A stretch of 64,000 nucleotides of DNA from an uncultured Thermoplasmata archaeon (GTDB lineage Archaea > Thermoplasmatota > Thermoplasmata > Halarchaeoplasmatales > Halarchaeoplasmataceae), in contig CAZHUM010000001.1 in the NCBI GenBank assembly GCA_964535805.1, forward strand, positions 39,122 through 103,121, in the 5' to 3' direction. The notes beneath the pieces are model-generated. The model worked only from the letters and a program-made list of their open reading frames with translations, was not told the DNA's origin and made no database searches. Position 1 is the stretch's first letter. Every line of letters begins with the position of its first letter. This document shows, piece by piece, positions 26,679-61,619 of the stretch. Made by a program: the position numbers and the translations under genes.

Positions 26679-26864
26679 TAAACTTAGAAAGGGGTGTCCC
26701 TTACTATTAATCTAATTGATATATCATAAAGTGTTATACCCTAAAATATATTTAATTCATTTTTTTAAAATCCGAAAAATCAATAAGCTTAATTATCCCG
26801 TATCTATTGGGGGTATATCGCTCTAACCATGGGTTTCATTCAATGTAGCCATGGAGGGATAGGC

Positions 26865-34602: not shown

Positions 34603-34611
34603 TTCATTGCT

Positions 34612-37515
<2,904 letters not shown>

Positions 37516-37523
37516 TGTTTATC

Positions 37524-39348: not shown

Positions 39349-42300
39349 ATGAGGTTTAGCTTGCCTAATCTAAGCAAAAAAACAGAAACACGGAAGCACG
39401 TCGATGAGTCAATATTAGAGAAACACTGGGGTACCATAGTCTCGCTTTTAGGAATATTTTTCCTAGCATTCTTTATACGTACCTACTTCGCTTTCGATTT
39501 AGCGACAAAATACGGAACGCCTTATTTGTTGTCAGGAGGGTCTGACGCATATTATTATGGTAGGATCATCGACTATATACAAACCAATCATCAGCACCTT
39601 ACCTTCGACCCATTATTGAATTACCCGATGGGTTCTAGAAATCCTCGTCCACCTATATTCGCCTGGTCTATAGTTCTGATAGGACATTTACTAAGCCCAT
39701 TTGTAGGCAGCGTGAACGTGGGGATCAACTACGCATTCATTTTATCTACAGGGTTCTGGGGTGCTCTAACTATCTTCCCAGTATATCTCATCGGAAGGGA
39801 TACTTTCGGGAAAAAGGCCGGGATGGCTGCTGCGTTTCTATTAGCCATAAGTTCTGGTCATCTACAGAGAAGTCCTATTACTAACGGCGATCACGATGCG
39901 ATCTACCTTTTCTTCATCGTGACGGCATTCTACTTCTTTATGAAAGCTCTTGAGGGCATACCAGATGAGAAAAATTGGATATCCTCTTACAAGGATCCTA
40001 GTGCCATTAAGAACGGATTAAAACAATTTGTAATGGAGAACAAGAGGTCTTTGCTTTATTCCGGATTGTCCGGTATGTCAATAGCATCCGTAGCTCTTAT
40101 CTGGAAAGGGTATGCCTACGTCATAGTTATTCTGATAGTCTACTACTTCATACAATTATTCATTGACCGATTAAGAACGAGAGATTCTTTGGGGATAACG
40201 GCCTGCATCGGAATATCAATAGGTTTGGCTTTCCTAGTTTCCTCACCATACTATCTCATTGTTGGAATCGGACCTAGGTATTTTGATATCCCACTGTTGA
40301 TGTTCGCCGCTGGTTTTGGAGTAGGTATATTCCTTACGGTTACACGGGATTGGCCCTGGGTTCTCACCTTTTCCATCATCATCGCCGGACTTGTCGTATT
40401 TATATTATTGGGATTATACGTATTACCGAGCTTATTAACCGCACTGACAAGTGGTGCTGGTTACTTTGTTCAAACCAAAGCCATATCCACTATCGCAGAG
40501 GCTCAAGCTCCAGCGTTCAGTAATCTGGTGATGTCATTCGGATTGGTATCATTCTTCCTTTCCATAGCAGGCATTGGACTCGCGATATGGCACTTTAAAA
40601 ATAGTTGGAAAACGAACTTTCTTTTAATCTTATTGTGGACAGCACTTGCCATCTACATGGCTATGTCCGCTGCGAGGTTCATTTTCAATTCTTCCCCTGC
40701 ATTTGCCCTGACAGCTGGTTGGGTCATTGCATTGGTGGTCGACAAGACTGACTTCCCCGCCATATCAAAAACATTCCAAAGTTTCAAGGGGGATGTGTTG
40801 TACGGCATTTGGAAGAGCGTCAAGCTGAGACATGCAACCGTTGCGGTTTTCGTTGTTTTCATGATTATGGTTCCAAATGCTATGTATGGAATGGATTCTG
40901 GAATACCTTATGAAGAGAAAGAGGGATACAACAAACAGATACACAGAGCACTTCCCGAACCCATTAGACCTGAAGGATACAATGCATCTAGTGGAGACAA
41001 TTGGTACCTCGGTGCTTTCGGATATGCATTGGATAAACCAAATGAATACTGGCCCGCATCGTGGGAGTGGTTGGCCCGTCAAGACAACGATAAAGAACCA
41101 GCGGAGAGACCTGGTTTCTTAAGTTGGTGGGACTACGGTTTCGAGTGCGCTAGACAGGGCGATCATCCCACTGTGGCTGACAACTTCCTTAACGGACATC
41201 AGCTGGCCGGTAACGTACTCATGGCTCAGAATGAATCCGAGATACTTGCTCTATTCATTACTAGAGAACTTGAAGATACATACAGTAAAAGCGATGGATT
41301 TGACGACGACATAGAAGAAATACTCATCGATTATATCGGTGAAGAGAAAACCCATGAGTTAGAAAGAACATTTAAGGATCCAGAGAGATATAAAGAGGAG
41401 GTTCTATCCAACCCGGAAAAATATCACCCAAGGGACGAAGATTTGGATAGACATAATATAAAATACGCAAGGTGCATGGGGATGTTGTCTTACGAGGGGC
41501 TAGATACCCTTGGAGAATTGTATAGAGATATCTCATTAAAGATAGATAAAAGGATCAAGTATATTGCAATGGATACAAGATTGTTTCCATTCTCTGGAAC
41601 GAACACGGGCATATTCTATGCACCAGCAAAATTATCCGGACACCGTATCTACGAGGAACATGGTATGCGGACACCCATCGATTTTTACAAGGTGCTTTTG
41701 GTAGATGAACAAGGTAATGAGTACGAAAACCCAGATAAAGTACCCCAGGAGGTCAGTATCACGGATTACAAGATAGATTACCAACCTGCGTTCTTCAATT
41801 CCACCCTGTATAGAGTGTTCGCAGGGTATTCCGCCCAGGAGATAGGCGAAGGAGAAGGCATTCCGGGTTTAGACAATCAAGAGCTCCAACCTATGCCTTC
41901 ATGGAACATGACGCATTTCAAGTTATCTTATAGGACCGCTTATTTTAACCCGTATCCAAGGGATGAAGTCCGTGATCATCCAGATGCATGGAAGGCGATT
42001 TCATATGAAAAAGCCCTCGAGTACCACCAGGACGATAACGTCACGGTTGATTTGAGCGCCCAAAGTTACATGAGACAGGGTGTGGTTTATTTGGAGCACT
42101 TCGATGGAGCATTGATCTCTGGCAAAGTAACCACCGAAGAAGGCGAGCCCATAGCCAATGCAAGGTTAACCGTTCTTGATGATACCGCGACCCCACATCA
42201 AATGGATTACACGGATGAAGACGGTAGTTATTCCCTTAAAGTCCCTTCTGGAAACATATCCGTTATCGCATCTGTCGGAGGATTGAGCGGAGGGCAAAGG

Positions 42301-45300
42301 GCACAAAATATAGAATCAATAATGCTGGGTGCTTTTTCTATGAACATAAGCGAAGAACAGGCCATGAGAGTGAAAAAAGATAGAGACGGTGACGGAACCT
42401 GGGATTACTTGATAGATAAAAACATAAAGATCGATACAGGTAATCTTACTGTTAACGTATTCGTAGATGAAAACAGAGATGAAAAATTCTCATTTGAAAA
42501 TGATACTTTAGTACCGGGTGAGATTACTATCGAGAACCAAAGAAGTGGTGTTGAATATGTTTCTGAAGAGAACAACGGAAGCCATACGTTCACCGGTATT
42601 TTACCAGGTAAATACAGAGTAACTACGGATGTCGAAGGCGGTATGTCTATTACCGATGTTTCAGTTAAAAGCGGAGCTGAAAATGAAGAGAGTATAATTC
42701 TGACCACCGGATCTATATCAGGAAACGTAGAAATGGATGCTGAAAACATGAATGCGAGCTCCATTGAACTGGTAGTTAAAAACGAAGAAGGAGGCGAGAT
42801 GATCACTAGTTCTATAGACCAGGGCGGCAATTATTCTATCGAACACCTCAGAATTGGAACATATTCAATTCATGTTAATACAGATGGTTTCGCGATAAGA
42901 GAAGGCGCTATTCGATTTATCATAGATGGAGAAGTGAGTTTGACGAAGAACTTCAACATATCCCGAGCTGAAAGGGTGAATTTGAGGACTAAAACGTCCA
43001 ATAAACTGCTCCCCTATCAAAAAATATCATTCATCGACAAAGAAAACTATCGATACTCCCAAACCATACAAACTGGTAAAGAGGGGAAAACAGAGATAAA
43101 ACTGCCCTTGGGAAAATACTTGGTATATGGGACCGTGCAAAGGGATAATAAGTTCTACGTACATATGAACACGATAGAAGTAACGGAGGAAGTCAACTAT
43201 ACTGCTGAGTTGGTAAGGGGATTCCAAGTCGAAGGTCAAGTTGATTCATCGGAGATAACGTCCAATATGGGGAGTAATATCTTGTTCAGCTTGGATGAGG
43301 ACAAACAGGGCTTGGCAGCCACAAACAGAGAAGGCCTGTACTCGTTAGTGGTGGAGCCCGGAGATTACAATATTTTCGGGTGGAACACGGTGGGTGCGAC
43401 CAGTTCTTCATTCTGGAAAACGGAAACCATCGACAGCGAAACGAAAATAGATTTCGAGACAAAGGTATCCTATCGTGCTAGTGGAAACGTTTACAGGGAC
43501 CTGAATCTAAACGGCCAATATGATAAAGGAGAGGGGATATCTACAGAGATCAAGGTCACTGTGTCGGGCAACAATTACTTCTTCGATTCAGGATTTGATG
43601 GGAATTATACACTGATCTTACCGGAAAAGGAATGTAGGATCACGTTCTCCAAAGCGGGATACATCCAAAAGAGTGTGATATACGACCCGGAGGTCGAATT
43701 TTCACGCAACATCAATATGAATGCTAAAAACTTGTCAGTACACGGAGATATAATCTGCAACAAGGAGTTCTCTTCACTACCCGTCAAATTTGATCCTTTG
43801 TCTAAAGGCGCTGTACTGAACGAGATATCCGTTAATAATTCTGAATACACAACAGGATTACAGCCGGGTGATTATGAAGTGACGATCTACTCTAGTCCGT
43901 CCGAAGGAGAAAGATACATCTACTCAACATTTGTAAGCCTTGAACCTGGTGAAGAGGATATAGAATTAGATCTTCCTGTTAAATACCAGGTGAGGATGAC
44001 GGGTAACATCTTCGGACCTGCAGGAGATAGTACATATGCAGAAATACGATTATCGGGCCCAGAGGTGCGCACCTTGTCGGGTAACGGCACGTATTCAGGC
44101 TATTTCGCACCGGGTAACTACACGCTATGGGCTGTGAATAAAGAAGAAGAACTAATCAATCAAACTGAGGTTTCACTTGTATCGCCTATACAGTTGAATA
44201 TCACCATGGAAGATGCCCATATATTTTCCCCGTTCGTTACCTTCGATGAAGAACCTAGGGATAACCTACCAATAATGTTCGAACAGATAGAAACGGGATT
44301 CGTGTTCAACCAAACGACGGATCCGGATGGAACCTTCAATTTACCGCTTGTAAGTGGGACATATGAAGTGACTGTGGATTACGAAACTACAGAACCCGTT
44401 GAAGGGGTTCTGAGAGATGTACGTTATCACTATTCGGACACCTTTGTGATCGACTCACACATGGCACCTGAGATAGCTTTGAACAGGGACATAATCAACG
44501 TTACTTTAGAGGGTGTACTCAAAGCAGATGATGAGACTGTCCAGGGGGCCACTATTGAATTCATAGCAAACGGCCCAGAATCCATGGATACAGAAGTCAC
44601 GACGGGGTCCGATGGGACTTATCAGCTTGATATCTCCCGGGGGTTATACACCGTCTATTGTCATGTGTCAGGAAGTAAAGGATTATATGCACAATTCAAC
44701 GAATTCATAATGCCCGAAGCTAATGAAACTTTGAACATCAATCTCTCCAAAGCATACAAGATAACAGGTAAAGTGAGTAAAGACTCTCAGGATGTCGAAG
44801 CCGACATCAAAGTTTCCTCTATGAAAGGGGTTGGTGAGAAGATATTCCACTCCGATAAAAATGGAGAGTATGAGATAGTACTCCCATCCGGGGAATACTT
44901 GATAACCGTGACTGAATCAGTGGGCGGAGATAACGTATATAAAGCATCAGAAAGGATAGAGTTGGAGTACAGCTTGAAAAAGAACTTTGTTCTCAAGATG
45001 GTCAAAGAATACGGTATCGAAACTGAAGAACTGATAGAAAAAACAGTAAAGCAGGGAGATAATATCAGTTTCGAGGTAAAAGTCAAGAACACTGGAAACA
45101 CTAAGGACACCTACGAGTTCTCGGCACCTAAAGCAATTTGGGACATTGAATTCACGCCTAAAAAGATGACTGTAGAAAACGGTAAAACCGACACTTTGAT
45201 AGTGGACGTTCACGTATCTGAAGACGCATCTGCAAATCATCCACCCATCTCTTTCAATATAGATTCTATGAACTCCGAAAAGGCAGAAGAAGTTACTCTT

Positions 45301-45804
45301 CCAATCGAAGTAAAACAGGTATACGGTGTCGATGTAGTTCCCGTCGCAATGAGAACGGTTTACGATAATGGTAAACTTACATACCGTGTGAAAGTTGAGA
45401 ACAGCGGAAACGGGGATGACAGCTATAAATTATCTCTGCTCAACAAAGGATACCTTGAATCACAGGGATGGGAAGCTTCAGTTAACAATGAAACGGAAAC
45501 GATCACGGATGGTGGCCAAGAAGAGATAGAAATAACACTTAAGGCGAGATCAAGTAAGCCCAGCAGGAAAGTTGATGTAGAGTTAGAAGTCGTTTCTAAT
45601 GGGGATTCATCGGTTTATGAAGAAGAAGTACTAGAGGTTGTCCTACCAGAGATTCAATCAAGTAGCGATAATTTCTCACTTCACGGAAAGAATCTTGCTA
45701 CTGAGAAAGAGAAACTGGAGATCACGACAGGTCAGTGGTCGGTTATAATCATACTGGTGTTGATCTCTACATTCTATGTGGCTAGGAAGAAGAGGTGGAT
45801 ATGA
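39349..45804 (+). CDS. aglB: Giant AglB/STT3 oligosaccharyltransferase (2,151 aa). It comprises a 13-TM STT3 core with a WWDYG periplasmic domain, then about 1,100 aa of tandem CarboxypepD_reg/Ig-like beta-sandwich repeats and a C-terminal TM anchor with a polybasic tail.
   Basis: GGSDAYYYGRI first-loop acidic motif, multi-TM N-terminus and FLSWWDYGFECAR motif. Repeated G-K/N-V-x-x-x-x-G-x-P-I-x-x-A-x-(L/V)-T-V and D-(E/G)-x-G-x-Y modules run from about residue 900 to 2,050. It ends ...WSVIIILVLISTFYVARKKRWI. AGGTGA RBS is present. Confidence 0.85.
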   Translation: MRFSLPNLSKKTETRKHVDESILEKHWGTIVSLLGIFFLAFFIRTYFAFDLATKYGTPYLLSGGSDAYYYGRIIDYIQTNHQHLTFDPLLNYPMGSRNPRPPIFAWSIVLIGHLLSPFVGSVNVGINYAFILSTGFWGALTIFPVYLIGRDTFGKKAGMAAAFLLAISSGHLQRSPITNGDHDAIYLFFIVTAFYFFMKALEGIPDEKNWISSYKDPSAIKNGLKQFVMENKRSLLYSGLSGMSIASVALIWKGYAYVIVILIVYYFIQLFIDRLRTRDSLGITACIGISIGLAFLVSSPYYLIVGIGPRYFDIPLLMFAAGFGVGIFLTVTRDWPWVLTFSIIIAGLVVFILLGLYVLPSLLTALTSGAGYFVQTKAISTIAEAQAPAFSNLVMSFGLVSFFLSIAGIGLAIWHFKNSWKTNFLLILLWTALAIYMAMSAARFIFNSSPAFALTAGWVIALVVDKTDFPAISKTFQSFKGDVLYGIWKSVKLRHATVAVFVVFMIMVPNAMYGMDSGIPYEEKEGYNKQIHRALPEPIRPEGYNASSGDNWYLGAFGYALDKPNEYWPASWEWLARQDNDKEPAERPGFLSWWDYGFECARQGDHPTVADNFLNGHQLAGNVLMAQNESEILALFITRELEDTYSKSDGFDDDIEEILIDYIGEEKTHELERTFKDPERYKEEVLSNPEKYHPRDEDLDRHNIKYARCMGMLSYEGLDTLGELYRDISLKIDKRIKYIAMDTRLFPFSGTNTGIFYAPAKLSGHRIYEEHGMRTPIDFYKVLLVDEQGNEYENPDKVPQEVSITDYKIDYQPAFFNSTLYRVFAGYSAQEIGEGEGIPGLDNQELQPMPSWNMTHFKLSYRTAYFNPYPRDEVRDHPDAWKAISYEKALEYHQDDNVTVDLSAQSYMRQGVVYLEHFDGALISGKVTTEEGEPIANARLTVLDDTATPHQMDYTDEDGSYSLKVPSGNISVIASVGGLSGGQRAQNIESIMLGAFSMNISEEQAMRVKKDRDGDGTWDYLIDKNIKIDTGNLTVNVFVDENRDEKFSFENDTLVPGEITIENQRSGVEYVSEENNGSHTFTGILPGKYRVTTDVEGGMSITDVSVKSGAENEESIILTTGSISGNVEMDAENMNASSIELVVKNEEGGEMITSSIDQGGNYSIEHLRIGTYSIHVNTDGFAIREGAIRFIIDGEVSLTKNFNISRAERVNLRTKTSNKLLPYQKISFIDKENYRYSQTIQTGKEGKTEIKLPLGKYLVYGTVQRDNKFYVHMNTIEVTEEVNYTAELVRGFQVEGQVDSSEITSNMGSNILFSLDEDKQGLAATNREGLYSLVVEPGDYNIFGWNTVGATSSSFWKTETIDSETKIDFETKVSYRASGNVYRDLNLNGQYDKGEGISTEIKVTVSGNNYFFDSGFDGNYTLILPEKECRITFSKAGYIQKSVIYDPEVEFSRNINMNAKNLSVHGDIICNKEFSSLPVKFDPLSKGAVLNEISVNNSEYTTGLQPGDYEVTIYSSPSEGERYIYSTFVSLEPGEEDIELDLPVKYQVRMTGNIFGPAGDSTYAEIRLSGPEVRTLSGNGTYSGYFAPGNYTLWAVNKEEELINQTEVSLVSPIQLNITMEDAHIFSPFVTFDEEPRDNLPIMFEQIETGFVFNQTTDPDGTFNLPLVSGTYEVTVDYETTEPVEGVLRDVRYHYSDTFVIDSHMAPEIALNRDIINVTLEGVLKADDETVQGATIEFIANGPESMDTEVTTGSDGTYQLDISRGLYTVYCHVSGSKGLYAQFNEFIMPEANETLNINLSKAYKITGKVSKDSQDVEADIKVSSMKGVGEKIFHSDKNGEYEIVLPSGEYLITVTESVGGDNVYKASERIELEYSLKKNFVLKMVKEYGIETEELIEKTVKQGDNISFEVKVKNTGNTKDTYEFSAPKAIWDIEFTPKKMTVENGKTDTLIVDVHVSEDASANHPPISFNIDSMNSEKAEEVTLPIEVKQVYGVDVVPVAMRTVYDNGKLTYRVKVENSGNGDDSYKLSLLNKGYLESQGWEASVNNETETITDGGQEEIEITLKARSSKPSRKVDVELEVVSNGDSSVYEEEVLEVVLPEIQSSSDNFSLHGKNLATEKEKLEITTGQWSVIIILVLISTFYVARKKRWI

Positions 45805-46577
45805 TGAAGTGGCAAGTGGTTGTTATCTTACTTGTTTTATTTGCCTCTCTCAGTTTTGGATATCTCGGAGACGGTGGTGCAAAATTATCTCAAGCGGGTG
45901 TAGATGTAAACATTAATGGCCCTACACGTGTATTTAAAAACCACACTGTTCAGTACGAAATAGAGATCGGTGGAAGTTTCGGTCTATATGCCCAGAATTG
46001 GAGTATATCCATAGAAGAATCCGATGAGTACAGTGTTGACCAGTACCAAAAACAATCTATAAAATCAAATACATTTCAACTGAACTTCACCACTATGAAA
46101 GAGGGGAAAGCTACCCTCAATATCAAAGGATTCTGCTCCGATGGTGAAGAGACCAGATACAGAGAGGCTTCTTTGGATATAAAGTCCGTTGAAGCCGTGA
46201 GTGTTTTCGTTGACCTAAAGAATACGAAGGATATCACGATGGGTGATTTGAAATTAGGACTTTTCATCGATGGAAAACTCCAAAACACTAAGATCGTCAG
46301 TACTTTGGAACCCGGAGAGACTAAAAACATACAGATCAACTGGTCCAAAGACGGGCTTGACGAGGGAGAGCACGAGCTCGAAGTTTGGGTCGACTACGGA
46401 TACAATGAAGACGATTCCTTCGTTAGGGACGAGCTTTTAGTTGAAAAGACGTTCTACATCCAGGGTGAGAACACACTATATGAATACGCCTGGTTGATGA
46501 TAGCTGCCGGAATATTAGGATTCCTCGGACTGTATTACTACCTCAATAGGAAGAAGAGAAGAAGACGACCCTGGTGA
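45795..46577 (+). CDS. Hypothetical exported protein with an N-terminal signal/anchor, a beta-sandwich (CARDB-like) region, and a C-terminal TM plus RKKRRRRPW tail.
   Basis: The start codon overlaps the aglB stop (ATGATGA). N-terminal hydrophobic helix. The C-terminal LMIAAGILGFLGLYYYLNRKKRRRRPW resembles a sorting or anchor signal. Confidence 0.45.
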   Translation: MDMMKWQVVVILLVLFASLSFGYLGDGGAKLSQAGVDVNINGPTRVFKNHTVQYEIEIGGSFGLYAQNWSISIEESDEYSVDQYQKQSIKSNTFQLNFTTMKEGKATLNIKGFCSDGEETRYREASLDIKSVEAVSVFVDLKNTKDITMGDLKLGLFIDGKLQNTKIVSTLEPGETKNIQINWSKDGLDEGEHELEVWVDYGYNEDDSFVRDELLVEKTFYIQGENTLYEYAWLMIAAGILGFLGLYYYLNRKKRRRRPW

Positions 46578-46602: not shown

Positions 46603-47679
46603 ATGAAAATTGCCGTCGTAGTAGGTACAAGACCAGAAATAATCAAGATGAGTCCGATTATCAGGGCACTTAATGAAAGGGGGATGGATCATGATGTGAT
46701 ACACACCGGTCAGCACTATGATCACGAAGTTTCCAACATATTTTTTCAAGAACTTGATTTAGATAAACCAGCAGTTAACCTAGATGTCGGTTCTGGTAAA
46801 CAAGGTGAGCAAACAGGACAAGCACTTATCGGGCTGGAAAGAACCTTCGATGAATTAGACATCGACGTTGTTCTAGTGCAGGGAGATACCAATACGGTTC
46901 TAGCCGGTGCTTTAGCAGGTGTCAAAATGGGGTTGACGGTAGGTCATGTAGAAGCGGGGCTGCGCTCTTACGATTACCGCATGCCCGAGGAGTACAACAG
47001 GAGATTGACAGACCATGCATCTAAACTGCTTTTCGCTCCTACGGAGCACAGCGCCGAACTCTTGAAGGAAGAAAATGTTTGGGGGGACATCTATGTCACG
47101 GGCAACACGGTGATCGACGCTTGCATACAGAATATGAAGATCGCCTCTGGAAAAGCTGAATTCGATTTCGATGTTCCTGAGGATTACGTACTGATAACTG
47201 CCCACCGAGCTGAGAACGTGGACGATGAAAGAGTGCTCAAAAATTTTATCCAAGTTTTCGAGGAAATCGATCGTGAGATGGTGTATCCCATACATCCACG
47301 AGCGAGGAAAATGTTCGAGAATTTTGGGTTATGGGATAGGTTGGTCGACGTCCCGGGGATGCATGTAGTAAAACCACAGGGATATCTTGAGTTCTTGCTC
47401 CTTATGAAAGGGTGTAGATACATATTAACGGATTCTGGCGGGATACAAGAAGAGGCGACGGCACCCAGCATCAAGAAAAAAGTTTTCGTGCTCAGGGAGT
47501 CAACAGAGAGGCCTGAAGCAGTGGACGCCGGACATGCAGAGGTTGTGGGAACTAGGAGTGAAGATATCGTCGCCGGTATCAGAGAGTTTGAAGGGGAAGA
47601 TTGGGATCCAAGGGAATGCCCCTACGGAAAGGGGGATGCAGGAGTAAGGATCGTAGAAATTATCTCTGAAGAGTGCTAG
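46603..47679 (+). CDS. wecB: UDP-N-acetylglucosamine 2-epimerase (non-hydrolysing).
   Basis: MKIAVVVGTRPEIIKMSPI, HTGQHYD, LVQGDTNTVLAGALAG, HVEAGLRS and DSGGIQEEA. Confidence 0.9.
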   Translation: MKIAVVVGTRPEIIKMSPIIRALNERGMDHDVIHTGQHYDHEVSNIFFQELDLDKPAVNLDVGSGKQGEQTGQALIGLERTFDELDIDVVLVQGDTNTVLAGALAGVKMGLTVGHVEAGLRSYDYRMPEEYNRRLTDHASKLLFAPTEHSAELLKEENVWGDIYVTGNTVIDACIQNMKIASGKAEFDFDVPEDYVLITAHRAENVDDERVLKNFIQVFEEIDREMVYPIHPRARKMFENFGLWDRLVDVPGMHVVKPQGYLEFLLLMKGCRYILTDSGGIQEEATAPSIKKKVFVLRESTERPEAVDAGHAEVVGTRSEDIVAGIREFEGEDWDPRECPYGKGDAGVRIVEIISEEC

Positions 47680-48497
47680 ATAAGGCCCTCATAAATCCCG
47701 ACTAAAATTTTTACTATTTTCTTTGGATCGTGATACTTTTGGACGAATTTACGCGGATTTTTTACCCTGTCGGGATCCTCGAATCCGTAGAAAGATGTGT
47801 ACTTTTGGGGAAAATCTGTGTAGGTTTTTAGACCACATGCCATCGCTTCTAGCCGCGCTAGAGAGACAGGGTCGACGAGGGCGCCTATCATCTTCTCGTA
47901 CCTGTTAAAGAGTTCAGGGAGCTCGTCGTGGGGTGTGAACGGCAGCATGTTTACGTTCCTTGGGAATTTGATCTCGTCGCCCCAGTTGATGCAGTCGTAT
48001 TTCTTCTTGGGGTCGATATGTTTGAGGATGCCGCTATTGTGTCTGAATCTGCCCAATAAAAGTATCTTTTCGGATTTTTCCGTTTCTTTAGGCTTGAATA
48101 ATTCCAGATCAACTGGATTCGGTAGATAAAGGCCCGTCGCCATCTCCATCAAATCCGGGGTACTCAACAAAACGATATCCGCCCTTTTCCGGATGTGGCT
48201 GCTGATTAACCTGTGGTGCAAGGGCAGTTTCTTTAGTCCTTCCGTGGCAACTAACCTCACATCACTCCCGTGACAATGTAATATGAATGGGATTTTTTTC
48301 CTTTTTGATTTTCTATAAGCCCGTATGACGGATTTCGTCAGTGCATAATGGCCGTGGACAACGTCGAATCCATCGATATCACCGGGTTCGTATCTAAGTT
48401 CTGGCTTAACACCGTAATCCTGAAAATGTTTGCTATAGGTCCGGTATATGTTCTGCATAGGGACTGCATCTTCAGAGCATACGTGAAGTACTTTCAT
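47676..48497 (-). CDS. Short GT-B fold (GT4-like) glycosyltransferase.
   Basis: The C-terminal SLARLEAMACGL matches the GT4 E-x7-E region, and the N-terminus has a Rossmann-like VLHV...HGH. Weak. Confidence 0.4.
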   Translation of the reverse strand: MKVLHVCSEDAVPMQNIYRTYSKHFQDYGVKPELRYEPGDIDGFDVVHGHYALTKSVIRAYRKSKRKKIPFILHCHGSDVRLVATEGLKKLPLHHRLISSHIRKRADIVLLSTPDLMEMATGLYLPNPVDLELFKPKETEKSEKILLLGRFRHNSGILKHIDPKKKYDCINWGDEIKFPRNVNMLPFTPHDELPELFNRYEKMIGALVDPVSLARLEAMACGLKTYTDFPQKYTSFYGFEDPDRVKNPRKFVQKYHDPKKIVKILVGIYEGLI

Positions 48498-48557
48498 TCG
48501 TTTTGGTGTAATAATTAAAGAGTAAATTACTCTTTTGGTTGTGAATTATATCAATAA

Positions 48558-49796
48558 CTAGGGGAATGGATAGCTCTCATCTATTAGATTTTTTATAGTG
48601 GTTTTGTTTTCATTTGAGATATCATTCCTTTCTCCTGGATCTTCCTTAAGATTGTAAAACTCTAGATTTTTGGTTTCTTCATCATAGATCAGTTTATAGT
48701 CGTCTTTGACAAATCCGTAGATGTTGTAATCCAATTTATCGGGATGTCCGATCAGATTAACATCTCCCTTCATACAGCTTCTGTTCCCTGCATGGCAGGC
48801 TCGAAGGGGGATCGAATCATCCTGGTTCGCTTCCTTTTCAAAGGTGTTGGATCCAGGTTTCATTATGGAAAGGAGTAATTCGGGTACATCTCTCAACTGT
48901 CTGATGGGCAGACTTGCTTCATTTTTGCTCTTCACCTTGACGACCAGGGGAACTCGAACCAATTCTTCATACAACTGTGCTGGATGCCCTAAAAATCCGT
49001 GCTCATAGAAACCCTCTCCGTGATCTGCAGTTATTATCAGGTCGGTGGTGTCCCACAAATTCTGATTTTTTAACATTTCACACAGCGATCTGATCTGGAT
49101 GTCCGTCCATCTTACGCAATCGTTATACAGCTGTCTTAAATCTTTCAAGGTTTTTTCGTCTCCTAGATCATGCAATCTATGCTCTTTTCTAAATTTGTTG
49201 AGACGTACGATATCGCTATAGTTGAACTTGGTATTTTCTAATGGAGGTGTGTATGGATAATGGGTATCCATGAGATGCAGCCATAGGAAAACGGGCTCGT
49301 TGCGTGTTAATACTCTGGTTGCATCTTCAATCGCCACTCCACTGCCCCAAGCTGAGGTTATATCTTCCTTAAAATACCATTTATACACATCTTTAAGATC
49401 CCTCAGAAATTTTGGAGCTTTATCGATCATGGATGATGCGCTCACTCTTCTTTTGGCCCGTAAAGAAGACATGTAATCCTCGAAAAATGAAAAACCTTTC
49501 TGATATCCGGAGAGGCTTGATATGTATGGGTTATTGGCCACCACGCCCGCTGTTCTATAGCCCCTTTCTCTGTAAAGCTCAACAATTGTGGGGGATATTA
49601 TCTTGGGTTTATCGAAAAAGGGGTGATAATTCATATTGAACAAACTGGGGAAGGAGAAGGGTGTGGAAGGACCGTTTGCATAAACTTTGGATATGTGTGC
49701 ACCCTCCTTCCTTAGAGCTGAAAGGTCGGGCATGATGGACAGCGCATCAGCTCTTAGCGAATCGACAGTCAGGAGTATGACTTTATGCTCAGCCAT
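48558..49796 (-). CDS. Alkaline-phosphatase superfamily (sulfatase-fold) protein lacking the C/S-x-P-x-R formylglycine motif.
   Basis: VILLTVDSLRADAL metal-binding N-terminus. There is no CxPxR motif, so it is probably not a true sulfatase. The start was placed at the internal ATG (MAEHKVILLTV). Confidence 0.55.
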   Translation of the reverse strand: MAEHKVILLTVDSLRADALSIMPDLSALRKEGAHISKVYANGPSTPFSFPSLFNMNYHPFFDKPKIISPTIVELYRERGYRTAGVVANNPYISSLSGYQKGFSFFEDYMSSLRAKRRVSASSMIDKAPKFLRDLKDVYKWYFKEDITSAWGSGVAIEDATRVLTRNEPVFLWLHLMDTHYPYTPPLENTKFNYSDIVRLNKFRKEHRLHDLGDEKTLKDLRQLYNDCVRWTDIQIRSLCEMLKNQNLWDTTDLIITADHGEGFYEHGFLGHPAQLYEELVRVPLVVKVKSKNEASLPIRQLRDVPELLLSIMKPGSNTFEKEANQDDSIPLRACHAGNRSCMKGDVNLIGHPDKLDYNIYGFVKDDYKLIYDEETKNLEFYNLKEDPGERNDISNENKTTIKNLIDESYPFP

Positions 49797-49854
49797 GGCG
49801 TGTAAATCGAATAGATATTTAAATAAATATCCCAATAAAATATATTTAAACGAC

Positions 49855-52800
49855 CTAATAATCCACGGACCAATCTACGGGGGCATCCGCCCCATTATAG
49901 ACCCAATATGCTCTACCTTTTACCAAAACCTCGGTTGAAAGGTCTTGGATGTACTCCAGATTGTAGGGGGCCCATTCATTATAAACACCGAGTTTCGTGA
50001 TCTCTGATGGGAGGGTATTTGAGGCGATTTTATTAGATTCGGATGGATATCCTACCATGTTCCATCCTGGTTTCAATTCGATCTTTGTTCTGTATGGGTG
50101 ATGACCCTGGATGGTTAGTGTGTCGTTCTTCGTCATGTGTATCCAAATACCCATGGTATGATCCCATGTGTTAAGGTCGTTATAATGACTCGATCTACCC
50201 GCGGCGAACGTTTTCCACTCTCCATCTGTGCTGTCATAGTACATCACTTTATCGTAACTTCCTTCTATACCCCTTTCTGGGGCGTTCAACATTGATTCTA
50301 TGCTCTTATCTTTCGGAACTAAATTTGTAGAGATAAAATTCCATCCTTCTGATGCCCCGCTTGATCCTAGTGTGATATTGTGTGTCAAACTCCTTCTAGC
50401 TTCGTAATATCGGTCCCATAAAAAACTTCGGAAGGGATTGTAATGAACGTAGAGGAATCCTATCACCTCGGGATCGTTGGTCAATCTGTCCGTATCTATT
50501 TGGAACCAGTTGAACGTTCCGTCGTCGTTGAAAAATATATTGGAATATTTGATATTATCTATCTTAGAAACGTTCCTACCGGTGGTATTGTAAAGTGAGC
50601 TCCATGAGTTATATGTCGTGATCGTTGCACTTCCTCCGTTGTGTGTATCGATGGCAGACCTGATAGTGAGATGTTGTTCTACATAATCTGTGTAGTTATC
50701 GATCGTCTTGGATATGTTGTCCCAGTTAAGGTATGTATTTGTTCTGGCAAGTTCTTTGGCAGCTAGTGCACCATACTTCATGCTCCTTCGTCTCCATGGG
50801 TCCGGCTCATCTAGATAACTAAAATATGCCCAAGTGCCCTTGGAATCGCCGGTGTATATCTGATCGTTGATTATGTATCGAATACAAGTCCTCATGTGTG
50901 GTAAAAGCCTATCGTCGTGATAGTAACTGCTGTTCAAGTTTTCATCGAAGTACGCTTGTGTGAATAACCTGCCAAGTTTACTATAACCATTTACGTAAAC
51001 AAATGGATGGTCTTTGTTCACCCCTTTTATCCCCCCTGAACCGTTGTTGGGTTCCGTGGATGTCCATGGCACGGTGTAGTTGATTCCACCATGATATGTG
51101 ATATTGTCCATGGCCACCTTGTTCAAAATAAAATCGATGACCGTATCGAATGCATTTAGATACGTTTCATTGTGTGTGTAAAAATATGCATCCTGCAGGG
51201 CCAAAGCGGCTCTAACGTTTCTATGTGTGTTCCATTCCTCGTATGTATCTTCAAATAGTCCTCTTACTTCGTAAACCGTACTAAAATTGTACAGACCCCA
51301 CTCATCCCTGAAGCTCAAGGCGTAATCGAATTGTTTTTCTCCTCTTTCAAGATAGCTATCGTTACCGGTGCGTGCGTGAGCACCGTAGTATGCAAGTCCC
51401 ATCTCCATCAATATATCAGGCAGCCAATCTTCGTAGATCGTATAATACCCGTCGGCATCTTCGTTCTTTACCCCCCATTCCATCATCTGCAGGCATTTTT
51501 CTGTTTTGTTCTTATAGGGCACGATGGTTTCGTTGTAATAACCGGCGAAGAAAACGTCTGACCACGCCTTGAGGTTGTCATCTGTAATGGATCGAACCGG
51601 GTCGATTTCAGCGCGTATCTTATCATATCCTTCAACCTCTGGAATCCAATCTACTGATATTTTTTCAGACGCATCCGGTGACACGGAGATACTCTTTTGT
51701 GCGATCGGAATTTCTCTGTAATAGAACGTAACATTACCTTGGTAGTTTTGTGTAAGATTACTGGTGACGGAAACGGATAAAGTTATGTTCTGCGGACCCA
51801 TAGAATTATTTATGGGTACGAAAGAGGTGGGATCGGTGGTGACGTTGGTAAGGTAAATCCTTTCCGTGGTTGAGGTGTTAAGAGAGATGAAATTATAAGA
51901 GGAGGGTGAGAAGTAAGTAGTTTTATTGTCCGCTGTTATCCCGAAAATATTTTTTTGTGAATATGTGCTGCCGTTAGTCCTCCATATGAATGGTATCTCG
52001 TGTAATCTACCGATGTCATCGGTCCAGTAGGTTCTCTCACTACCGCCCTCCTTTGGGAAAATTTTTACTTCATGATTTTCGAGTATATCGCTACCGTTCT
52101 TCACCAGAAAGTCATGATAGTAGCCTTTCTTGATACGCCCGCCAGATGTTATCTCCCAGTCATCTATGGTGCAGTTCATCAGAGTTAAATTCCCACTGCT
52201 GGTCACGCTAGCATCGTATTCCCAGTTATCATAGAATGTAGAATTCGTGATGTTCACGAAATTGGTCCCGCTCGATAGTAGAATTCCTGTACTGTCAAAA
52301 TTTTTAAAGGTTATATTATTGAGATATTGGTCGGTTATATCTCCGGCGGCATAGAAAACCAGTCCGTTTAACCCGCTGGACAGTATGGTGTTCACTATTT
52401 CTACACCAGTACCATAGATCTCTATCCCCCTTTTACCTACGTTATTACCCCACCCCGTGTCCATTATATGGCTCCCTTCAACGTACAAAGTACCGGATTC
52501 GTTCTTATGTATGTTGTATCGGTTCTCTCCTTCCCACCACCTCTTTTCCTCGGGCTTGCCCGCTATCTCTGAGCGAGTTATGTTAACCCCTCCGGTTGAG
52601 TTTATCTGGAAGGTTTTTTCGTTATCAAAATATAGGGTCTCATCCGTTATATTCAACCATCCTTGAACCGTAAGATTCGCATAACAATACCCCGTGCGGT
52701 TTGGACTGTCGTAGTAGAAAACGGTTTCATCGCCAACATCAGTGTATATCGATGAGAGTGAATTACCTCCTCCAAACACATAGATCGTATCATGGGATGA

Positions 52801-52926
52801 AGAATAAGAGGATGTAGATGGTGTGAGGCTAATACCTTCTTCACTCGATATTCCCTCTAAATAAATGGGAGTTATCATCAAAATGACTAGTATCAATGCA
52901 GCTACTCCTCTGGTTATCTTCATCAA
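49855..52926 (-). CDS. Secreted 1,023-aa protein with an N-terminal right-handed parallel beta-helix region and a central (alpha/alpha)-toroid-like region. It is a probable heavily N-glycosylated surface protein or glycan-processing enzyme.
   Basis: Signal peptide MMKITRGVAALILVILMITPIYL. Beta-helix repeats (NITFKNFDSTGILLSSGTNFVNITNSTFYDN). It contains more than 30 N-x-S/T sequons. Confidence 0.55.
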   Translation of the reverse strand: MMKITRGVAALILVILMITPIYLEGISSEEGISLTPSTSSYSSSHDTIYVFGGGNSLSSIYTDVGDETVFYYDSPNRTGYCYANLTVQGWLNITDETLYFDNEKTFQINSTGGVNITRSEIAGKPEEKRWWEGENRYNIHKNESGTLYVEGSHIMDTGWGNNVGKRGIEIYGTGVEIVNTILSSGLNGLVFYAAGDITDQYLNNITFKNFDSTGILLSSGTNFVNITNSTFYDNWEYDASVTSSGNLTLMNCTIDDWEITSGGRIKKGYYHDFLVKNGSDILENHEVKIFPKEGGSERTYWTDDIGRLHEIPFIWRTNGSTYSQKNIFGITADNKTTYFSPSSYNFISLNTSTTERIYLTNVTTDPTSFVPINNSMGPQNITLSVSVTSNLTQNYQGNVTFYYREIPIAQKSISVSPDASEKISVDWIPEVEGYDKIRAEIDPVRSITDDNLKAWSDVFFAGYYNETIVPYKNKTEKCLQMMEWGVKNEDADGYYTIYEDWLPDILMEMGLAYYGAHARTGNDSYLERGEKQFDYALSFRDEWGLYNFSTVYEVRGLFEDTYEEWNTHRNVRAALALQDAYFYTHNETYLNAFDTVIDFILNKVAMDNITYHGGINYTVPWTSTEPNNGSGGIKGVNKDHPFVYVNGYSKLGRLFTQAYFDENLNSSYYHDDRLLPHMRTCIRYIINDQIYTGDSKGTWAYFSYLDEPDPWRRRSMKYGALAAKELARTNTYLNWDNISKTIDNYTDYVEQHLTIRSAIDTHNGGSATITTYNSWSSLYNTTGRNVSKIDNIKYSNIFFNDDGTFNWFQIDTDRLTNDPEVIGFLYVHYNPFRSFLWDRYYEARRSLTHNITLGSSGASEGWNFISTNLVPKDKSIESMLNAPERGIEGSYDKVMYYDSTDGEWKTFAAGRSSHYNDLNTWDHTMGIWIHMTKNDTLTIQGHHPYRTKIELKPGWNMVGYPSESNKIASNTLPSEITKLGVYNEWAPYNLEYIQDLSTEVLVKGRAYWVYNGADAPVDWSVDY

Positions 52927-52979
52927 TATATAACAAGCTTATTCATCCTATTAATTAATTTTCCCACAGATAAATTCAT

Positions 52980-54461
52980 TCACGGTCGAACCTTTTTTCC
53001 CATGCCCAGAAGCTCCTTCATCATCTTTATATCGTTTTCGCCTATGCCCTTCAATAAATAGAGCGTGATGAAATACAACGTGATAGCTATCGGAAGGAGC
53101 CAGAGCGGTGTTATGGTGAGTGGTATGTATTCATTGGAATACAAGAATACCGCCATGATCACACTTGAGATATAGGGTTTCCAAAAATCAGTTAATGGGA
53201 TAGCGCCTAGGTATGATGTGACTATCCTATAATTTGCCATGAAATGCACGATCTCGGCCAGGACTACTGCTATAGCCGCTCCTACAACACCGAATCGGGG
53301 TATCGCTATTATAGCTGTGACGATCAGAACAAGGGAAGCGAGTGCTAGATTTTTTGTTGAATCCTTGGTTTTGTCGCTGCCCCAGAGGGCCATTTTCAGG
53401 CTGCCGTTCATGAACAAAAAGGGCAGCATCCATACGATGTTTCTAAAGACTGGAACGGTGGCTGAAAACTCCGTACGATAAATGAATTGGAGTATATCTT
53501 CTCCGATGACATACAATCCCAATGTCAGCGGAAGAGAAAACACGAGGAGATATCTCAACGAATGACGGTATGTTTTCTTCATTATCTTTTTACTTGAATG
53601 ATGGTGTTGCGAGAATATCGGGTAAAGTGCCCTTCCGAAAGAGTATGGGACCACACCGAAAAAGACTATTATCTTCCAGCTTGCTCCATATACGCCGGTG
53701 GAATAATCGCCTTCGAAGATAGATAAAAGTAAGATGATAACGTGTCCGTAGACCATACTCAGGAAGATGAAGACCGTGAACGGAGAGGCTTTTTTAACTA
53801 AATCTGGCCATTTATTTAATGTTGGCTTTTTTATGCTGCCGTTCAACATCGAATAATATACGAATAAAGAGATTAAGAAATTGAAAAGGTAAGAAACAAA
53901 GAGCAGAAGTAGGATATAGAACAGATCGAAACCCAAATAAATTCCTATGAAACCCAGGGCTAAATAAACAGATTTCGAAACAGCCGTTGTGAATGCCTGG
54001 AATTCCATCCTCTGCAATGCCTGAAATTGGGCAATAAAAGCTCCAGAAAGTTTTTCCAACAGTATCATAGATGCCGCGACGATCAGCACGGGAACAGGTA
54101 GCTTGACGTTGAGTTCCCTGAATATGGTGTAATAGACTATATATAAAAGTGAAAGAGTCAGTAATCCTAGCAGTACACGGAGGGCCAATATATTTCCCAA
54201 CATCTCTGGTGCCTTTGATTTATCTCGGGAGACCTCCCTTATTGTTAACTCATCGAAACCGAAATCGGCTATCACCGTAGCCACATAAGAGAGCGAGATC
54301 GCGATGTTGTACACACCGAAGGACCTCGGAAGGAGATGGTTAGCTAGGAGGATGATAAACAACGCTGTCAATACTCTAGATGTCAGCTTCGCTCCTATCA
54401 GCCATGATGTGTTCTTCGCTACCTTTAAGGACTTTTTCAAGATATCAAATATAGTTAACAT
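52980..54461 (-). CDS. Oligosaccharide/polysaccharide flippase (Wzx-like, MOP superfamily).
   Basis: About 14 predicted TM helices across 493 aa. Typical polysaccharide-biosynthesis-protein topology. Confidence 0.7.
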   Translation of the reverse strand: MLTIFDILKKSLKVAKNTSWLIGAKLTSRVLTALFIILLANHLLPRSFGVYNIAISLSYVATVIADFGFDELTIREVSRDKSKAPEMLGNILALRVLLGLLTLSLLYIVYYTIFRELNVKLPVPVLIVAASMILLEKLSGAFIAQFQALQRMEFQAFTTAVSKSVYLALGFIGIYLGFDLFYILLLLFVSYLFNFLISLFVYYSMLNGSIKKPTLNKWPDLVKKASPFTVFIFLSMVYGHVIILLLSIFEGDYSTGVYGASWKIIVFFGVVPYSFGRALYPIFSQHHHSSKKIMKKTYRHSLRYLLVFSLPLTLGLYVIGEDILQFIYRTEFSATVPVFRNIVWMLPFLFMNGSLKMALWGSDKTKDSTKNLALASLVLIVTAIIAIPRFGVVGAAIAVVLAEIVHFMANYRIVTSYLGAIPLTDFWKPYISSVIMAVFLYSNEYIPLTITPLWLLPIAITLYFITLYLLKGIGENDIKMMKELLGMGKKVRP

Positions 54462-54521
54462 CAGAGTTTATAAAAATTCTTCTATCGCTATATTTTTAAA
54501 TGTCGATAAGGGCTTTTTGGA

Positions 54522-55601: not shown

Positions 55602-55645
55602 AAGATAAAGGGCGTGGGAAATTTATAACATTTTTGTAAAGAACG

Positions 55646-56572: not shown

Positions 56573-56582
56573 GTGTATCCCC

Positions 56583-61607: not shown

Positions 61608-61619
61608 GTGTTTTTTAAA

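Follow-up and report, generated by a model that had tools for sequence, protein, structure and literature searches.

Extra-long AglB oligosaccharyltransferases with a predicted beta-sandwich arch and a co-encoded partner protein in the archaeal class Thermoplasmata

A 64-kb stretch of DNA (the window) from an uncultured, probably halophilic Thermoplasmata archaeon encodes an extra-long form of the oligosaccharyltransferase (OST) AglB, and the end of the gene overlaps the start of a gene for a second membrane protein, the partner. Sequence comparison indicates that this giant AglB is the standard form across the class Thermoplasmata and not a one-off. The pair is best explained as a lineage-typical two-subunit OST, in which the extra-long AglB would carry a non-catalytic beta-sandwich arch anchored in the membrane at both ends; this explanation is judged to be somewhat better than even. 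AglB is generally taken to work as a single subunit of some 600-1,000 residues, and all structural and biochemical work on AglB that is known to us concerns forms of that size. Neither a giant AglB nor an AglB-CARDB pair was found described in the literature, a weak negative with most subscription journals outside the coverage, and a 2024 review mentions neither an accessory subunit nor a giant form of AglB (PMC11407970).

The aglB gene is a single unbroken open reading frame of 2,151 codons (positions 39349-45804, forward strand), which starts at an ATG and encodes 2,151 amino acids. Residues 1-510 (39349-40878) comprise the multi-span GT-C membrane domain, recognized by a Pfam STT3 match (PF02516, residues 55-505, 49.3 bits against a cut-off of 24.5), by 11 strong hydrophobic segments and by alignment to A. 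fulgidus AglB-L (PDB 3WAJ/5GMY). The external catalytic, globular domain follows at residues 511-922 (40879-42114) and contains the WWDYG motif at 593-597 (41125-41139), the sole WWDxG within the window. The A. fulgidus enzyme shares the GT-C domain, the EL1 Asp, the second acidic motif, the TIxE motif and WWDYG. In the window AglB these core motifs are D66, D181-H182-D183, T381-I382-A-E384 (TIAE) and W593-W-D-Y-G597, with D66 aligned to D47 of the A. fulgidus protein, D181/D183 to D161/H163 and E384 to E360. D66, H182, D183, T381, I382, E384 and W593-G597 are invariant in 38 sequences of 29-83% identity, among which D181 is the consensus residue only. A profile of the family matches A. fulgidus AglB at an E-value of 4e-20, and eukaryotic STT3A/B as well. 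The NCBIfam model archaeo_STT3 (TIGR04154), which represents the ArtA-associated STT3 subfamily, aligns over residues 31-966 with a score of 238.3 bits, below its cut-off of 450. The gene product is thus assigned as an AglB/STT3 oligosaccharyltransferase (GT-C, CAZy GT66) with an intact predicted catalytic core. Because the catalytic motifs of the GT-C core are all kept, the enzyme is expected, like any AglB, to glycosylate Asn-X-Ser/Thr sequons from a lipid-linked donor on the outer side of the membrane.

The A. fulgidus AglB-L chain consists of 875 residues and ends at the counterpart of the first CarboxypepD_reg domain of the window AglB, with which its C-terminal, beta-rich peripheral domain aligns at about residues 913-966. 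The first domain of the array is the counterpart of the terminal domain of ordinary long AglBs. Beyond the A. fulgidus form, the window AglB has 12 more beta-sandwich domains, a 14th transmembrane (TM) helix that ends in a basic tail, and a partner gene of its own immediately downstream. Residues 923-1890 (42115-45018) form eleven tandem prealbumin-like domains of the CarboxypepD_reg, SdrD_B and NOMO types, identified with Pfam and AlphaFold2; CarboxypepD_reg accounts for 135 bits summed over several stretches from residue 923 onwards, and SdrD_B and SpaA are among the other Pfam matches. Two CARDB/FixG_C-like beta-sandwiches occupy residues 1891-2100 (45019-45648). They are supported by Pfam and NCBIfam, including a FixG_C/Ig-like match at residues 1908-1980, and carry invariant N-T-G-N motifs at 1914-1917 and 2018-2021; together they resemble the 'choice-of-anchor T' model (choice_anch_T, 59.6 bits, below the cut-off of 70). 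The last segment, residues 2101-2151 (45649-45801), is comprised of a linker, the C-terminal TM helix at 2127-2148 (45727-45792), in which the hydrophobic stretch spans 2127-2145, and a predicted cytoplasmic tail, ARKKRWI. The in-frame fusion of an STT3 core to a long beta-sandwich array and a C-terminal TM helix, proposed in the initial annotation, is borne out by Pfam, the alignment and AlphaFold2, with the difference that 13 domains lie between residues 923 and 2100 where about 10 had been counted.

The AlphaFold2 model of the array, or stalk, was built from a family alignment of 35 rows and is an all-beta chain with one TM helix at the end (pLDDT 85). Domain number and domain sizes are constant across the family. 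The lengths of domains 3-13 vary with a standard deviation of only 1-4 residues, while identity is just 17-25%, and the span from WWDYG to the C-terminus measures 1,500-1,650 residues in 166 of 199 homologues. Domains of the same protein are poorly alike (mean identity 24%, maximum 34%). Conservation peaks at the two membrane-proximal ends and is lowest in the middle. The invariant residues of the stalk are Gly, Tyr and Pro fold determinants plus the two NTGN motifs, and the alignment of 38 sequences contains no conserved polar cluster of a catalytic type there. The composition is acidic and sequons are enriched (23 observed against 13.1 expected, p ~0.004), with a family mean density of 1.4 per 100 residues in the stalk versus 0.69 in the catalytic ectodomain. 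From its sequence, the stalk looks structural and is probably itself N-glycosylated. Foldseek comparison with the PDB returned only generic multi-Ig proteins and no functional lead, with TM-scores of up to 0.12 for the 1,200-residue stalk model and up to 0.34 for the partner model. The matches include HYDIN, alpha-2-macroglobulins, B. anthracis TIE and the C-terminal barrels of transglutaminases, and pilins are also found among the neighbours of the stalk.

The partner gene (45801-46577, forward strand) encodes a membrane protein of 258 residues. At the junction, ATATGATGA, ATG codons at 45801 and 45804 overlap the aglB TGA (45802-45804); the open reading frame as listed starts at a GTG at 45795, and homologues start at the ATG. 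A Shine-Dalgarno-like site, GAGGTGG (45792-45798), is encoded by the AglB tail codons AAG AGG TGG. The partner is composed of an N-terminal signal or anchor, two beta-sandwiches, the second of which is a CARDB domain (Pfam, residues 131-199, 35.5 bits against a cut-off of 22.7), a TM segment at 230-248 and the tail RKKRRRRPW. The AlphaFold2 model likewise has two beta-sandwiches and a TM helix, 12 of 13 partner homologues have a precomputed PF07705 match, and RRRPW at the extreme C-terminus is invariant. The proposed overlapping gene for a second anchored beta-sandwich protein was confirmed, and the arrangement is a conserved one: the partner lies directly 3' of aglB in 67 of about 70 assessable loci and is present in all five loci with called genes. 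Its start is offset mostly by -4, -1, 0 or +1 nt, the overlap with aglB is usually 4 or 1 nt, and a Shine-Dalgarno-like 5-mer precedes the start in 41 of the 67 loci, compared with 8% at control positions.

The surroundings of the pair vary, with trpS and wecB in the window and an RNA-polymerase operon in Methanomassiliicoccales, and the partner is kept throughout. In the window, wecB (UDP-GlcNAc 2-epimerase; 46603-47679, forward strand) is the first gene of an adjacent glycan-synthesis cluster, whose minus-strand part (47676-58480) encodes a GT4 glycosyltransferase, a sulfatase-like protein, a 1,023-residue protein of no assigned function, a Wzx-type flippase, DUF354, sulfotransferase and FemAB-like proteins and a polysaccharide deacetylase. 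In a Ca. Saliniplasma locus (L002) wecB adjoins the pair too. At 18 of 81 loci the pair is followed, after about 0.8 kb, by the gene of a canonical thioredoxin, which in M. luminyensis gives a weak OST3_OST6 match. As a candidate third subunit it was rejected, having no signal peptide or TM segment and being absent from the window and its clade. Two further proposals were discarded. The partner does not appear to be a duplicate of the CARDB-like pair of AglB, since BLASTP against the last 272 AglB residues found likeness in the TM segment only, and the pairing of tail motifs (AglB ending in KRW[ILF] with a partner ending in RRRPW at 22 loci, other pairs in other clades) follows phylogeny and is not counted as a sign of co-evolution.

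Extra length is the norm of the lineage, so that the window protein is not the individual oddity it was first taken for. The searches yielded about 200 homologues of at least 2,000 residues (28-93% identity); of the 120 best matches, 117 exceed 2,100 residues, and about 100 of the best 150 representatives of 50%-identity clusters measure 2,000-2,775 residues. Relatives occur in at least 580 species genomes. Among the best 80 of these loci the giant form is found wherever the contig holds the whole gene, and 73 of the 80 cover more than 90% of the 2,151-residue query. It is found in haloalkaliphilic (soda-lake) Thermoplasmata, in the gut methanogen order Methanomassiliicoccales, where the cultured Methanomassiliicoccus luminyensis has a copy of 2,173 residues, and in the deep-sea DHVE2. 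Many giant homologues are annotated as 'carboxypeptidase regulatory-like domain-containing protein' or 'glycosyltransferase family 39 protein', so that surveys of archaeal N-glycosylation can miss them.

Not all long relatives have the same make-up. Other Thermoplasmatota STT3 proteins, of 1,100-1,300 residues or, in Ca. Poseidoniales, 3,174 residues, have the same core (33-37% identity) followed by CarboxypepD_reg, SdrD_B and NOMO-type domains. The short ones end after 2-3 domains and have neither a C-terminal TM helix nor a partner, as in a 1,190-residue relative. The Poseidoniales form has about 360 additional N-terminal residues and a longer stalk, and in spite of its C-terminal TM helix no CARDB partner is encoded downstream. 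The partner is therefore not obligatory for every long AglB.

That the reading frame might be the product of misassembly or a frameshift, or the STT3 core catalytically dead, is of negligible probability, and for the window gene the comparisons refute an artefact. Over 97-100% of its length, AglB is collinear with more than 100 full-length homologues that come independently from a variety of assemblies and sources; this excludes a frameshifted or misassembled origin of the C-terminal part and marks the fusion of AglB to the array as real and ancient; the catalytic motifs listed above are all present and, except for D181, invariant. Signs of such damage were met in relatives only: in one related genome the gene is split (P0203, P0283 and P0284 on one contig, against a 2,201-residue cluster-mate), and another locus (L068) looks frameshifted. 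The proposal that AglB and its partner are archaeosortase substrates, whose TM segments and basic tails would be cleaved and replaced by a lipid anchor as in PGF-CTERM proteins, is also highly improbable. Neither window tail contains PGF or any other conserved tripeptide of known sorting signals. The PGF-CTERM model (TIGR04126) matches neither tail at E-values up to 1, and other CTERM models stay below threshold (E 0.06-0.08): Loki-CTERM reaches 13.3 against 19.9 for AglB, and LPXTG 13.9 against 15.9 for the partner. No PGF-tailed open reading frame was seen within the window, and no archaeosortase among the window frames scanned, whose multi-TM members are an ABC-2 permease, a VTT-domain protein and GDT1. 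The low TIGR04154 score and the invariant RRRPW, which argues for a retained cytoplasmic tail, point the same way. The wider family gives the idea some basis, as do the choice-of-anchor T-like final domains of AglB. A TM helix with a basic tail closes 187 of 198 giant homologues, and in 7 of the 198, all of them more distant, a PGF(E/G)-TM-Arg tail takes the same position; two PGF-tailed homologues reach the Loki-CTERM or Heimdall-CTERM cut-offs, with PGF_CTERM at 21.6 against 24.5. The likeness to archaeosortase signals suggested in the initial annotation thus holds for a minority of the family and fails for the window, where both tails are predicted to be plain TM anchors.

The closest known likeness of the stalk is to NOMO, a subunit of the BOS complex (PDB 9C7V chain B), which is likewise a tandem prealbumin-like array with one C-terminal TM helix and a short cytosolic tail, and which is situated in the ER lumen, a compartment topologically equivalent to the archaeal exterior. 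NOMO2 (9c7v_B) is the best PDB match of the family profile (E 1.5e-26, 95 bits), ahead of A. fulgidus AglB, and the Pfam model NOMO_5th matches the window AglB with 48.7 bits against a cut-off of 27. The two share a type of domain without being collinear: every significant stretch falls within profile positions 1054-1264, and one non-significant stretch (0.8 bits) lies at 1397-1444. As a single sequence, the stalk matches nothing among PDB sequences at E-values up to 0.01, and NOMO is reached by the family profile only. NOMO differs in being a separate polypeptide that is not fused to STT3, and its own partners, Nicalin and TMEM147, are unrelated to the CARDB partner. The window AglB is not classed as a NOMO member, and no orthology is claimed. 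Ribophorin I/Ost1, ribophorin II/Swp1 and OST48/Wbp1, which associate with STT3, are similar to the partner and the stalk in having one or more lumenal beta-sandwiches, a single C-terminal TM helix and a short basic cytosolic tail. This similarity is of architecture alone and is analogy, not homology: neither sequence nor fold searches with the partner or the stalk matched eukaryotic OST subunits, and the partner has no detectable sequence similarity to the C-terminal domains of AglBs either.

NOMO has been likened to beads on a string, a spacer of Ig-like domains that has a single TM helix at its C-terminus (PMC8327139), and has been described as containing 12 prealbumin-like domains, the BOS complex being located at the ER translocon (PMC11186639). 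With NOMO as the model, setting the width of the ER lumen, the array could instead be mainly structural, a glycosylated strut of fixed length that is anchored in part by the OST core and determines or helps to maintain the width of a pseudo-periplasm or glycocalyx. This is possible, if somewhat doubtful. Domain number and size are strictly kept at roughly 20% identity, the conserved residues are structural only, the stalk is acidic and rich in sequons, the lineage largely lacks classical walls, and M. luminyensis, a carrier of a giant AglB, has an envelope that reportedly may consist of two membranes and a thick layer between them (PMC4243693). A length fixed at 12 domains is no worse a fit to a ruler or spacer than to a module that handles substrates. 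However, both ends of the array appear to be in the same membrane, the basic tail placing the C-terminal TM helix in the cytoplasmic membrane by the positive-inside rule, which makes the array a loop and not a strut between two layers. Further, an enzyme is not expected at the abundance of a structural protein, and the NOMO likeness concerns the domain type only. Adhesion or surface display, with AglB merely as the membrane anchor of an adhesive or ligand-binding stalk, has very little probability. SdrD_B, SpaA and CARDB domains are typical of bacterial adhesins, and the structural neighbours include pilins, the thioester-domain surface protein TIE and alpha-2-macroglobulins; yet the distal end of the array returns to the membrane, there is no terminal ligand-binding head domain, and the domains are fixed in number, individually orthologous and of low identity within a protein, whereas adhesins typically expand and contract their repeats.

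A two-subunit enzyme with a doubly anchored arch is the explanation preferred here. From the AglB core, which is expected to N-glycosylate at the outer face of the membrane, the chain is predicted to continue outside the cell through the 13 beta-sandwich domains and to re-enter the membrane via its last TM helix, the 14th, whose polybasic tail lies in the cytoplasm; with the array outside and that helix back in the membrane, the external part is an arch anchored at both ends. The type-I-like partner is encoded by the overlapping gene, with its ribosome-binding site inside the aglB tail codons, and would assemble with AglB. Arch and partner may serve as non-catalytic accessory modules that keep the enzyme stable and in place and that retain or screen acceptor polypeptides close to the active site; in function they would correspond to the single-TM subunits with lumenal beta-sandwiches in eukaryotic OST and to translocon-associated proteins. 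For the arch, we infer a role as scaffold or spacer; the initial annotation had also put forward a putative S-layer-organizing role for the pair. A more elaborate version, speculative and rather unlikely, is a hetero-oligomeric OST whose catalytic subunit absorbed a NOMO-like 12-domain ruler of fixed length, anchored back in the membrane, and has a dedicated, translationally coupled type-I partner. Whether independent or ancestral in kind, such an enzyme would be the archaeal equivalent of the lumenal scaffolds around eukaryotic STT3 and the translocon, and might also bear load in, or space, a wall-less or double-membrane envelope. If so, the invariant polybasic tails KKRW and RRRPW would be docking sites, for instance for ribosomes, SecYEG or anionic lipids.

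A whole archaeal class uses an AglB more than twice the usual size, with a fixed external arch of 13 domains, a second membrane anchor and a partner that is almost always co-encoded, and a still larger relative is present in the abundant marine Poseidoniales. A complex of AglB and its partner, if one forms, would to our knowledge be the first multi-subunit OST outside eukaryotes, setting aside the accessory-subunit homologues predicted for Asgard archaea, and the cultured M. luminyensis would offer a tractable system for the role of non-catalytic beta-sandwich subunits in OST.

The catalytic core of the giant AglB is intact. The aglB gene (39349-45804, + strand) is an uninterrupted ORF of 2,151 codons with an ATG start, and the GC content over aglB and its downstream partner gene (0.42-0.43) resembles that of the remaining window. 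Pfam STT3 matches residues 55-505 (49.3 bits against a cut-off of 24.5), and the hydropathy scan gives 11 strong membrane segments at residues 30-508 and another at 2127-2145, followed by ARKKRWI. In a pairwise alignment of residues 60-616 with AglB-L of Archaeoglobus fulgidus (AfAglB-L; 3WAJ/5GMY), D66 pairs with D47, D181/D183 with D161/H163, TIAE384 with the TIxE glutamate, and WWDYG 593-597 with the WWDYG of the solved enzyme. An alignment of 38 family members, 29-83% identical to the query, shows no variation at D66, H182, D183, T381, I382, E384 and W593-G597. The NCBIfam archaeal STT3 subfamily model aligns with residues 31-966 and scores 238; because this is below the cut-off of 450, the protein is an AglB outside the archaeosortase-associated STT3 subfamily. 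The ordinary AglB body extends to about residue 1000; the beta domain that terminates AfAglB-L aligns with the first CarboxypepD_reg domain of the window protein.

The core carries an external chain of beta-sandwiches, the stalk, which is anchored at both ends. CarboxypepD_reg and related prealbumin-type families give repeated Pfam matches from residue 923, and a FixG_C/Ig-like match is found at residues 1908-1980. From Pfam matches, motif spacing and strand pattern, 13 domains are placed between residues 923 and 2100, instead of the 'about 10' modules counted in the initial annotation. Eleven are prealbumin-like (CarboxypepD_reg, SdrD_B, NOMO-type) and the final two are CARDB/FixG_C-like. An AlphaFold2 model of residues 952-2151, built from a 35-row alignment, is all beta, with about 90 strands and a terminal helix at 2127-2148; its mean pLDDT is 85 and its pTM is 0.43, so that the individual domains are confident and their relative arrangement is not.

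Conservation in the stalk is of a structural type. An N-T-G-N motif is invariant in each of the last two domains, and the other invariant stalk positions in the 38-member alignment are fold-determining Gly, Tyr and Pro residues. Conservation per column is about 2.5-3.2 bits in the core, 1.4-1.7 in mid-stalk and 1.8-2.1 in the two membrane-proximal C-terminal domains. The stalk is also of fixed length: the span from WWDYG to the C-terminus is 1,500-1,650 residues in 166 of 199 giant homologues, and the lengths of domains 3-13 have a standard deviation of only 1-4 residues, although in the family's distant half these domains are only 17-25% identical to the query. Domains inside a single AglB are just about 24% identical to each other. 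Because lengths are fixed despite low identity and the domains of one protein have diverged this far, the stalk is an old series of individually orthologous domains rather than a recently expanding repeat. N-X-S/T sequons are enriched in it (23 seen, 13.1 expected from shuffles, p ~0.004), and the family averages 1.4 sequons per 100 aa of stalk, compared with 0.69 for the catalytic ectodomain.

Of all PDB sequences, the AglB family profile matches best NOMO2, from the BOS complex of the ER (9c7v_B; E 1.5e-26, 95 bits); AfAglB is matched at 4e-20, and further beta-sandwich proteins are far behind, SdrD for example at 36 bits. NOMO is described as having 12 prealbumin-like domains and a C-terminal TM and is located at the translocon (PMC11186639); it acts as a beads-on-a-string spacer in the ER lumen (PMC8327139). 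The likeness thus extends to some 12 prealbumin-type domains, a single TM, a short tail and a position on the extracytoplasmic side, beside the machinery of glycosylation and translocation. Bar one non-significant stretch, the five NOMO-matching stretches fall on one set of two or three profile domains (positions 1054-1264), and the relation is therefore one of common domain type and equal tandem period, without collinear orthology. The architectural parallel is striking, yet it remains an analogy. Structure searches with the stalk and the partner gave generic multi-Ig matches only.

The initial annotation had regarded the length of this AglB as unusual, but the giant form is the norm of its lineage. 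A word-indexed search yielded 382 proteins with E up to 1e-10; of the 120 best, 117 are over 2,100 aa in length, with query coverage of 94-100% and identity of 28-93%. These full-length homologues exclude the frameshift or misassembly considered in the initial annotation, and an artefactual origin of the giant ORF is unlikely. When the core alone was searched exhaustively against representatives of 50%-identity clusters, 1,091 matches were obtained, and about 100 of the 150 best are 2,000-2,775 aa long. One genome per species was also scanned, yielding at least 580 loci with an AglB relative; the best 80 have the giant form wherever the contig spans the entire gene, and in 73 the query coverage is above 90%. 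The titles of these 80 name Thermoplasmata, Ca. Halarchaeoplasma, Ca. Natronoplasma, Ca. Saliniplasma, Methanomassiliicoccales and DHVE2. The copy of Methanomassiliicoccus luminyensis, a cultured species, has 2,173 aa and is labelled 'carboxypeptidase regulatory-like domain-containing protein'. The nearest shorter relatives (1,100-1,300 aa, core identity 33-37%) are from Thermoplasmatota too, but end after two or three such domains and lack the C-terminal TM, whereas the Ca. Poseidoniales form (3,174 aa) has one. At least two genomes have the giant aglB in pieces, as two or three ORFs (locus L068, and P0203/P0283/P0284, which lie on one 1.48-Mb contig with 954 + 663 + 597 aa against 2,201 aa for a cluster-mate); these split copies could be sequencing frameshifts or genuine pseudogenes.

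The partner is a conserved, coupled, type-I-like protein. Its gene (+ strand, ending at 46577) has ATG codons at 45801 and 45804 and overlaps the aglB TGA (45802-45804) in ATATGATGA; the start is ATG, instead of the GTG of a mechanical ORF listing. The protein matches Pfam CARDB; a hydrophobic segment lies at its N-terminus and a TM at residues 230-248, followed by RKKRRRRPW, of which the extreme C-terminal RRRPW is invariant within the window's clade. In its model (pLDDT 83.7), a helix at the N-terminus, either signal peptide or anchor, is followed by two beta-sandwiches and a TM helix. Apart from the module count and the partner start, ORFs, Pfam and hydropathy thus bear out the initial description of a giant AglB with beta-sandwich repeats, a C-terminal TM and an overlapping anchored partner.

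Five gene-called loci were compared, from a complete 1.42-Mb chromosome, Ca. Saliniplasma, a 2,418-aa variant, a Methanomassiliicoccus MAG and M. luminyensis, where AglB shares 29-35% identity with the query. All have a gene of 244-268 aa, of 245 aa in M. luminyensis, abutting or overlapping the aglB stop, with a CARDB match in four; their other neighbours differ. The aglB stop is present in 74 of the 80 species loci. Leaving aside four of these with under 0.8 kb of sequence beyond it and one frameshifted locus, an HMM search found a homologous partner gene in 67 of the remainder. Its start lies at -4 nt from the aglB stop in 20 loci, -1 in 11, 0 in 7 and +1 in 9, and 66 of the 67 homologues end in a TM and polybasic tail. 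An SD-like site, GAGGTGG (45792-45798, + strand), lies just upstream of the partner ATG within the AglB tail codons AAG AGG TGG. An SD-like 5-mer occupies this site in 41 of the 67 loci against 8% at control positions within aglB, which supports translational coupling of the two genes; this double use of the codons may contribute to conservation of the ...KRW tail in the window's clade. The 1,190-aa relative examined and the Poseidoniales form lack an adjacent partner. In 18 of 81 loci (L001, L004, L087 and 15 others), from Methanomassiliicoccales-type genomes, a thioredoxin with the canonical WCGPC motif, about 107 aa long and without signal peptide or TM, lies just beyond the partner, about 0.8 kb (0.76-1.5 kb) 3' of the aglB stop; that of M. 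luminyensis has a weak Pfam OST3_OST6 match, and the window has none.

The source organism is archaeal, because the window contains a complete archaeal 23S rRNA gene (34607-37520, + strand) and the PolD large subunit (DP2; 26829-31631, + strand; 1,600 aa, with a LAGLIDADG intein inside the catalytic domain). Unlinked rRNA genes are known in Thermoplasmata, and the lack of a detectable 16S rRNA in the 64-kb window is consistent with this. The closest AglB homologues are from Thermoplasmata MAGs (93% and 83% identity), followed by soda-lake and hypersaline lineages (40-47%); the ectodomains are acidic (D+E 16-19%). The aglB gene is flanked by trpS and wecB, and a minus-strand glycan cluster (GT4, flippase, sulfotransferase, sulfatase-like gene) adjoins. 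The order trpS-aglB-partner...wecB is repeated in Ca. Saliniplasma, the pair follows the RNA-polymerase operon in Methanomassiliicoccales, and the partner is the only neighbour of aglB conserved throughout the loci examined. Amid the glycan cluster lies a gene for a 1,023-aa protein (49855-52926, - strand) with one hydrophobic segment and no Pfam match; the gene at the equivalent position of the Ca. Saliniplasma locus has a weak Beta_helix match. Adjacent genes for a Fic/DOC-family protein (19179-20087, + strand) and an AAA_14 ATPase (20149-21369, + strand) sit between an ABC-2 transporter pair and a class-I tRNA synthetase of isoleucyl/valyl type (21680-24316). In the last 4 kb the GC and AT skew is extreme (0.4-0.5), owing to an ORF of at least 794 aa (61619-64000, + strand) that runs past the window end, with 32% Glu, 16% Lys and a coiled-coil-like repetitive pattern (EELEKEKEEL...).

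A TM and basic tail terminates 187 of 198 giant homologues. Archaeosortase processing of such tails, whose likeness to sorting signals the initial annotation noted, is unlikely in the window organism: neither window tail contains PGF or matches TIGR04126 at E up to 1, all matches to other sorting-signal models lie below cut-off (Loki-CTERM 13.3 against 19.9, LPXTG 13.9 against 15.9), and the window showed no PGF-tailed ORF and, among the ORFs scanned, no archaeosortase-like protein. The tail there reads as a plain anchor. Seven distant homologues among the 198 (P0146, P0160, P0166, P0167, P0168, P0195, P0200) nevertheless have PGF(E/G)-hydrophobic-Arg-rich tails at the same position; two attain the cut-off of the Loki-CTERM or Heimdall-CTERM model, and the PGF_CTERM score of one is 21.6 (cut-off 24.5). 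A sortase-type signal is thus possible at this position elsewhere in the family, and in some lineages the OST itself may be an archaeosortase substrate.

On balance, it seems somewhat probable that AglB and the partner assemble as a two-subunit OST, in which the partner and the arch formed by the stalk would serve as accessory modules without catalytic function, keeping the enzyme stable and in position or dealing with acceptor proteins. The main alternative, a more doubtful one, is that the arch is chiefly a fixed-length structural element of the cell envelope; it draws on the double-membrane envelope lacking an S-layer proposed for M. luminyensis (PMC4243693), but both AglB anchors are apparently in one membrane. 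A role of the stalk as an adhesin is unlikely. The full-text literature searched yielded no mention of a giant AglB, of its anchoring at the C-terminus or of a CARDB partner coupled to it, none of which is mentioned in a 2024 review of archaeal N-glycosylation (PMC11407970), and the proteins have been public for years in databases under generic names. The giant AglB is at once undescribed in that literature and ordinary within its lineage.
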